A stretch of DNA of 64,000 nt from Escherichia coli (lineage in GTDB: Bacteria > Pseudomonadota > Gammaproteobacteria > Enterobacterales > Enterobacteriaceae): NCBI RefSeq assembly GCF_044647545.1, contig NZ_CP172818.1. One strand, 5' to 3'. The notes beneath the pieces are model-generated. The model was given only the letters and a program-made list of their open reading frames with translations. It did not search any database and had not been told where the DNA came from. The translations under genes and the position numbers were made by a program. Every line of letters starts with the position of its first letter. The stretch's first letter is position 1. Shown here piece after piece: positions 7,936 through 8,610 of this stretch.

Positions 7936-8034
7936 GGTATGTCAGGTCTGCCACAGGGCAGACCAACGTTTGGCCCCCTTTAAAAAAAAAAAGACACCAA
8001 TACAACACAACAAAAAAAAAGCGCTGCGCAAAAC

Positions 8035-8610
8035 GTGAGCGCGGTGGTGGCGTATGACTTATCTGCCCAAATGCTGGATGTCGTGGCACAAGCTGCCGAA
8101 GCCGGGCACCTGAAAAATATCGCCACCCGCCAGGGATATGCCGAAAGTCTGCCATTTGCCGATAACGCATTTGATATTGTTATCAGCCGTTATTCTGCCC
8201 ATCACTGGCATGATGTTGGTGCAGCACTGCGAGAAGTGAATAGGATATTGAAACCTGGCGGTAGGCTGATTGTGATGGACGTAATGTCTCCGGGTCACCC
8301 AGTGCGCGACGTCTGGTTACAGACGGTAGAAGCATTACGCGATACCTCTCACGTACGAAACTACGCCAGCGGTGAGTGGTTGACGTTAATCAATGAAGCC
8401 AATCTGATAGTTGATAATTTAATTACAGATAAGTTACCGCTGGAATTTTCTTCATGGGTCGCGAGAATGCGTACGCCAGAAGCGTTAGTAGACGCTATTC
8501 GCATTTACCAACAGAGCGCATCGACAGAGGTGAGAACGTATTTTGCCTTGCAGAATGACGGCTCTTTCACCAGTGATATCATCATGGTAGAAGCACATAA
8601 AGCGGCATAA
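8035..8610 (+). CDS. yafE: SAM-dependent methyltransferase remnant, 5'-disrupted (GTG-initiated ORF lacking motif I)
   Basis: 191-aa ORF begins at post-motif-I region (VVAYDLSAQML...ILKPGGRLIVMD); the ATG at 7939 in the same frame terminates at TAA 7981-7983 after 14 codons. Confidence 0.6.
   Translation: MSAVVAYDLSAQMLDVVAQAAEAGHLKNIATRQGYAESLPFADNAFDIVISRYSAHHWHDVGAALREVNRILKPGGRLIVMDVMSPGHPVRDVWLQTVEALRDTSHVRNYASGEWLTLINEANLIVDNLITDKLPLEFSSWVARMRTPEALVDAIRIYQQSASTEVRTYFALQNDGSFTSDIIMVEAHKAA

Follow-up and report, generated by a model that had tools for sequence, protein, structure and literature searches.

Among the 5,426 complete E. coli genomes in which we surveyed the yafD-yafE junction, two main natural forms occur, a long allele and a K-12-type allele. 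In the long allele a 77-nt intergenic region follows the yafD stop and yafE begins at its own ATG (the PGAP start lies at position 1713 of the long-allele locus L001, with the end of yafD at 1636), encoding a 256-aa methyltransferase with the motif I sequence LDMGCGAG. The K-12-type allele lacks 220 bp between two 11-bp, near-identical direct repeats, one located in the intergenic region (TTTGGCGCTGC) and one within the gene (TTTGTCGCTGC) (L001 positions 1674-1893 are absent from L002, which is of the K-12 type), leaving the junction sequence TTTGGCGCTGCGCAAAAC, and it arose through deletion between these imperfect repeats. The deletion takes away the true yafE start together with the SAM-binding motif I and fuses the last 190-odd codons of the gene to a fortuitous ATG located 3 nt past the yafD stop. 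Annotated K-12 YafE (b0210, NP_414746.1) is that fusion, 207 aa in length, and its annotated start codon is a by-product of the deletion, the ATG serving as a start only there. A 201-bp probe from inside the deleted segment matched 3,783 of the 5,426 genomes and was missing from about 30%, indicating that the long allele is the majority form and that the deletion, or another lesion, is common.

Other, independent lesions of yafE were also seen, namely, a C-terminal deletion in DETEC-P881 (NZ_CP116100.1) and, on a Logan contig (SRR30949806), a frameshift within the codons for motif I. Unless these are assembly errors as well, they suggest that yafE is dispensable and repeatedly lost. A literature search on yafE/yafD and on the record BHUCD02, discussed below, returned nothing relevant.

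The sequence analyzed here, which we refer to as the window, is a 64-kb stretch of E. coli DNA with a third form of the junction that is carried by no complete genome in the survey. The features at this junction are as follows.

7135 to 7935, plus strand: yafD (endonuclease/exonuclease/phosphatase family), intact in the ORF list, with its stop codon TAA at 7933-7935
7939 to 7983, plus strand: K-12-style yafE start (ATG 7939) and a 14-codon ORF, MSGLPQGRPTFGPL, ended by TAA at 7981-7983
7945 to 7964, plus strand: hairpin GGTCTGCC-ACAG-GGCAGACC just 3' of the yafD stop, an inverted repeat in invariant alignment columns
7975 to 8021, plus strand: very probably artefactual 47-nt core of a 48-bp extra segment, CCCCTTTA11GACACCAATACAACACAACA9G, a subsequence of the long allele
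8035 to 8610, plus strand: C-terminal 191 codons of yafE (class I SAM-dependent methyltransferase) from an internal GTG start, from the ORF list and Pfam

The product of yafD shows no amino-acid differences from K-12 and the gene no indels, and its annotation is common to all relatives compared. The initial annotation had described an ATG 3 bp past the yafD stop whose frame closes at TAA 7981 after 14 codons, a perfect inverted repeat with an ACAG loop, runs of A11 and A9, a methyltransferase frame from GTG 8035 without the SAM-binding motif, and about 48 bp more than in K-12 between yafD and mltD, and each of these statements agrees with what we found. ATG 7939 matches the annotated K-12 yafE start, the A tracts occupy 7982-7992 and 8012-8020, and the spacing between conserved anchors is 122 nt in the window versus 74 nt in K-12, a difference of exactly 48 bp; in the long allele it measures 294 nt.

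The hairpin after yafD is a real, conserved, and ordinary feature. Its arms (7945-7952 and 7957-7964) pair perfectly over 8 bp, 6 of them G-C pairs, around a 4-nt loop, with a predicted minimum free energy of -19.5 kcal/mol (z = -2.2), and it is unchanged in the alignment of the long, K-12, and window alleles. We considered and rejected a role as a rho-independent terminator, as the tail, AACGTTTGG, contains no U-tract and a terminator scan gave no call at 7945-7964.

Pfam assigns the ORF at 8035-8610 to the class I SAM-dependent methyltransferases (Methyltransf_11/25 type), with a significant match to Methyltransf_11 (E = 7.9e-21; 74.9 bits with a curated cut-off of 21.2) that starts at profile position 20 and is confined to positions 20-95, whereas the intact 256-aa long-allele protein matches positions 1-95. 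As written, the window ORF does not encode a complete methyltransferase domain with the GxGxG-type motif I. This loss is not special to the window, being that of the ordinary K-12-type deletion, and it holds for the written sequence, the gene being probably intact in the real strain. The SNPs within 8035-8610 are those of the E. coli genome FDAARGOS_497 (NZ_CP033850.1), the closest relative.

The K-12-type deletion allele itself is not what the window carries, as 48 nt sit between TTTGG and CGCTGCGC; rather, the K-12 junction is the frame into which a remnant of other sequence was inserted. Every base of the 47-nt core of this insert (7975-8021) occurs, in order, within the first 73 nt of the segment specific to the long allele, so that the core is an exact subsequence of this stretch, which comprises the yafD-yafE intergenic region and yafE codons 1 to 12. 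The first 36 nt of the core embed perfectly in 51 nt of the long allele, and since none of 5,000 shuffles reached this embedding, in either shuffling direction, the origin of the segment is not a matter of chance. All 30 of the A's in the 73 nt are retained, the other survivors being 11 C, 4 T, and 2 G. Because every A was kept and most of the G, T, and C residues were dropped, A11 and A9 are the ancestral A's of TAATCAAACAATAAAAGG and CCACCATGACCACGTAGAAAAG, brought together after the intervening bases vanished. The window has none of the other 146 nt of the segment specific to the long allele, among them the codons for motif I.

Searches for the segment outside the window were negative. It is absent from the 5,426 complete E. 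coli genomes, an exact 20-mer from it had no match in GTDB species representatives, and the single match of this 20-mer in JGI metagenomes is an unrelated chance occurrence. The exact 191-aa product was recovered from one Logan contig, itself a long allele with a frameshift. We also considered adenine-specific mutagenesis, of the diversity-generating-retroelement type, and deaminase hypermutation, both of which were rejected on inspection since the A's are the retained bases and the changes are deletions rather than substitutions.

Comparison of the whole window with FDAARGOS_497 and K-12 MG1655 placed the junction in a wider context, for which three further features are needed.

29199 to 29524, plus strand: second collapsed segment, 325 nt for ~770 nt of FDAARGOS_497, from comparison with that genome
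33209 to 33217, plus strand: two 1-bp deletions (G and T, 8 nt apart) in crl (33152-33550), at the site of IS1I in MG1655
37494 to 64000, no strand assigned: MG1655-verbatim CP4-6 cryptic prophage with IS911A, IS30A, and IS5A, with 0 differences except in IS1B

From position 1 to 37,493, the backbone aligns with FDAARGOS_497 in blocks that are 97.9 to 99.99% identical, at least 99.8% in all but one, the sole lower block (97.9%) being 600 bp beside the second collapsed locus. The same backbone is collinear with K-12 MG1655 at 95 to 98.7% identity (about 1 to 6% divergent), and 21 flanking genes compared with K-12 have zero indels and zero stops, their divergence being natural and mostly at synonymous third positions. 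Because these genes are free of indels and stops, the damage at yafE is local and tied to a template and does not reflect general noise.

The remainder of the window is of a different nature. Outside the IS1B copy, positions 37,494 to 64,000 show 0 differences from MG1655 (NC_000913.3) over 26.5 kb, and the switch to MG1655 sequence falls 3 nt past thrW, exactly where collinearity with FDAARGOS_497 stops. FDAARGOS_497 lacks CP4-6, its tRNA being followed by a different remnant, and the 26.5-kb block is almost certainly template sequence that is absent from the sampled strain. Inside this otherwise MG1655-identical block, the IS1B copy (53,704-54,459) carries 61 differences (~8%), as would be expected if reads of another IS1 subtype, located elsewhere in the sampled genome, had piled onto the reference copy.

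The differences that do separate the window from FDAARGOS_497 are not scattered. Thirty-six of the 42 differing columns lie no more than 23 nt from a structural breakpoint between K-12 and FDAARGOS_497, the remaining 6 comprising 4 in the multi-copy rRNA operon, 1 homopolymer length, and 1 SNP, and the differences amount to 27 missing bases (14 G, 9 T, 2 A, and 2 C) versus 11 substitutions. Sequence that FDAARGOS_497 has and K-12 lacks is either lost (the 23.5-kb T6SS island and 1 kb of rtcB) or collapsed (the yafE and hydrolase inserts); the window keeps the K-12 T6SS-deletion scar and the rtcB deletion, with FDAARGOS_497-like flanks to within 2 nt of the junctions. Both hallmarks of a templated consensus are thus present, namely, verbatim template-specific DNA that is absent from the sampled lineage (CP4-6) and errors at the breakpoints between template and sample, with insertions lost or only partial.

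The second collapsed segment, at 29,199-29,524, corresponds to two genes of FDAARGOS_497 that K-12 lacks, one for a metal-dependent hydrolase (WP_001361775.1) and a small hypothetical one. As at yafE, it is close to the true sequence on the left, where single G's are lost; toward the right it collapses progressively and ends in runs of T10, A14, and A7. In crl, which is otherwise identical to that of FDAARGOS_497, the two single-base deletions produce a frameshift that is probably false and due to a sloppy deletion junction at the IS1I site.

Several smaller irregularities were observed elsewhere in the window. At 15161-15421, the K-12-specific scar of the T6SS deletion (a yafU/yafF/ISAs1 remnant, where FDAARGOS_497 has the 23.5-kb island) shows ~6% differences that probably come from mis-mapped paralogous reads. 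Ragged junctions, with a few bases missing or substituted at indels between MG1655 and FDAARGOS_497, occur at 20,194-20,207, 23,433-23,444, and 28,418-28,643, loci that correspond to the lpcA-yafJ intergenic region (149 nt in K-12 versus 54 nt in the window), rayT, and rtcB/prfH. A T-run at 14550 is one base longer than in FDAARGOS_497, whose ykfM is called frameshifted by PGAP, and here the error may sit in the FDAARGOS_497 record and not in the window.

Other identities for the window as a whole were tried and rejected. A generally noisy assembly is ruled out by the 21 clean flanking genes and their mostly synonymous third-position changes. Shigella, or an E. coli lineage that is rare and divergent, was suggested by a best first-pass match of only 98.2%; this was dropped when nearly the whole shared backbone turned out to be at least 99.8% identical to FDAARGOS_497, the first-pass ranking having been misled by structure. 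A recoded or synthetic K-12 derivative, a candidate prompted by the collinearity with K-12, is contradicted by the natural substitution spectrum and by the match to FDAARGOS_497.

We consider it very probable that the 48-bp segment is an artefact of consensus building, in which the reads of an FDAARGOS_497-like strain were laid on K-12 MG1655. In such a procedure, reference bases would stand at positions that no sample read covered, sequence missing relative to MG1655 would be removed with imprecise junctions, and insertions relative to MG1655 would be lost or only partly recovered. At yafE, the consensus step would have met the long allele of the sampled strain, 220 bp longer than MG1655, and would have held this long insertion as unaligned extra columns, in which indel errors in the reads shift the copies out of register, the more so with distance from the left anchor. 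A vote on each column would then retain bases that do not depend on the register, such as the A's of an A-rich tract or the T's of a T-rich tract, drop isolated ones, and end once no symbol had a majority. The predicted outcome at yafE is a left-anchored remnant with A11, A9, a false in-frame stop, and a seemingly truncated gene. The sequences themselves show that the 47 nt come from the long allele, that MG1655 served as the template, and that the errors coincide with structural breakpoints. We deduce the pipeline from its footprint; the exact software step and the read type, which was probably noisy long reads, are likewise inferred.

We examined the voting idea in a toy simulation in which 40 noisy copies of a 219-nt insert were left-justified and put to a column-wise vote at majority thresholds of 0.4 to 0.6. 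At thresholds of 0.5 to 0.6, the outputs, 28 to 80 nt long, were exact subsequences of the insert, true to it at the left edge and with long runs of A. This makes the voting idea plausible, in that the simulation matched the kind of output rather than the exact string or the software; the real segment keeps GACACCAATACAACACAAC better than the simulation does. In principle, the sampled strain might truly lack the 146 bp that are cleanly lost past the collapsed part. MG1655 has no counterpart of the sequence from which the 47 nt derive, so the long allele must have been present in the reads. It follows that yafE in the sampled strain is most likely intact (256 aa, with motif I), as is crl, and that the strain most likely carries the hydrolase pair and the T6SS island but not CP4-6.

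An assembly artefact had been named in the initial annotation as a possible refutation of its reading, and comparison with the long allele and with MG1655 now favours that outcome. The description given there (start, stop, loss of motif I, and 48 bp) stands, but the unusual real allele that it implied, one worth 5'-RACE or ribosome profiling, is not supported, as the segment very probably represents a collapsed copy of the long allele in an MG1655-built consensus.

Three other explanations for the locus were weighed. The first is a real, strain-specific pseudogene, a long yafE with a 146-bp deletion and many microdeletions of 1 to 3 bp in the upstream 73 nt. Bacterial pseudogene decay favours deletions, and yafE has been inactivated repeatedly in E. 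coli (the K-12-type deletion, DETEC-P881, and the frameshifted Logan contig), which lends this explanation some appeal. Yet some dozen or more individual microdeletions would have to have occurred within 73 nt, with no substitution and no A lost, in a strain whose flanking ~37 kb acquired only ~11 substitutions relative to FDAARGOS_497 over the same period. Such a history is not credible as natural change, and less so because the neighbouring sequence is almost unchanged. The same pattern at other K-12/FDAARGOS_497 breakpoints, the absence of the allele from the 5,426 complete genomes, the GTDB species representatives, and the JGI metagenomes, and the verbatim MG1655 block, which is left unexplained, also speak against it, and we regard a real pseudogene as very improbable. 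The same slight probability attaches to a variant in which the segment is real and was produced by a process that removes clustered non-A bases beside a deletion, in which case yafE would be truly dead with an unusual decay signature.

A second possibility is a real hybrid, in which a K-12 recipient acquired ~37 kb of FDAARGOS_497-like DNA by conjugation or transduction and yafE was damaged in the recombination. The mosaic of FDAARGOS_497-like and MG1655-identical sequence, with its sharp switch at thrW, is what such a transfer would leave. However, the T6SS island, rtcB, the hydrolase pair, and the long yafE of the donor should then have arrived intact, and each is missing or garbled; moreover, donor SNPs reach to 2 to 20 nt from every junction, so that a crossover would be needed at each indel, and the 61 differences in IS1B fit reads of another IS1 subtype on the reference copy and not a real K-12 segment. 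We hold a hybrid of this kind to be even less probable than a pseudogene.

Finally, and no more probable than the hybrid, the window could be a true de novo assembly in which DNA modification or secondary structure made base calling fail locally. This would fit the preferential loss of G's and the damage to two records, the window and BS-04, at the same locus, but the damaged loci are those where MG1655 lacks sequence rather than sites that share a motif, a de novo assembly would not hold verbatim MG1655 prophage DNA, and BS-04 itself bears the hallmarks of an MG1655 template. Even jointly, the three explanations retain only a small probability; they are disfavoured because they leave unexplained both the verbatim MG1655 block with its divergent IS1 and the damage at every breakpoint.

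Consensus building on MG1655, the explanation that we prefer, would also account for features of other public records. The best matches to the K-12-specific junctions were the RefSeq records BS-04 (NZ_CP172819.1), BHUCD02 (NZ_CM183444.1), and PD007 (NZ_CP120910.1), all of which look like MG1655-templated consensus genomes judging from their sequences. BHUCD02 and PD007 have MG1655-like coordinates and are within ~100 bp of the length of MG1655, and BHUCD02 aligns with MG1655 as a single collinear block of 44 kb that contains 513 mismatches and 4 gaps. Both BHUCD02 and BS-04 show zero differences in CP4-6 versus 1 to 5% in the backbone. In BS-04, the 5' region of yafE is collapsed to 183 from 256 nt, with 25 G's left of 69 while the A's show no net loss (69 versus 67), and novel crl and dinB products occur at K-12 breakpoints.

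The apparent novelty of the locus is an artefact, on this very probable reading, and the underlying hairpin and 220-bp yafE deletion polymorphism are ordinary and already annotated. The biological weight of the locus is accordingly small, concerning a well-annotated yafD-yafE junction and a common deletion polymorphism, and its weight for data quality is real. We regard the 64-kb window as a chimera of the sampled strain and the MG1655 template, so that the whole of it calls for caution: template artefacts very probably include the apparent pseudogenes (yafE, crl, and the hydrolase remnant), the unusual homopolymer runs, the seeming lack of a T6SS island, the CP4-6 prophage itself, and the hybrid IS1 copy, and other apparent oddities of the window should be discounted likewise. 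With the same hallmarks in at least three RefSeq "complete" E. coli records, such sequences can pollute pan-genome and pseudogene statistics.

Set against the known forms, the window shares with K-12 yafE (b0210) the yafD stop, the hairpin, the ATG 3 nt past the stop, and the right-hand junction CGCTGCGCAAAACGTG, along with the loss of the true start codon and of motif I, and so amounts to the K-12 arrangement plus 48 nt. It differs from K-12 in that the fused ORF is open there (207 aa), whereas the extra 48 nt of the window bring in the TAA at 7981, and in that its downstream coding SNPs are of the FDAARGOS_497 type and not of the K-12 type. The 47-nt remnant derives from the long allele of FDAARGOS_497 (WP_000211702.1, 256 aa; 2,590,045-2,590,891 of that genome), which matches the window without a difference in the flanking yafD and over the 3' 575 bp of yafE but retains the full segment of 219 to 220 nt, its own start codon, and motif I. 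BHUCD02, PD007, and BS-04 resemble the window in combining MG1655 structure and coordinates with foreign backbone SNPs; they differ from it in the sampled lineage and in the degree of collapse at yafE, with 148 extra nt in BS-04, 48 in the window, and none in BHUCD02.
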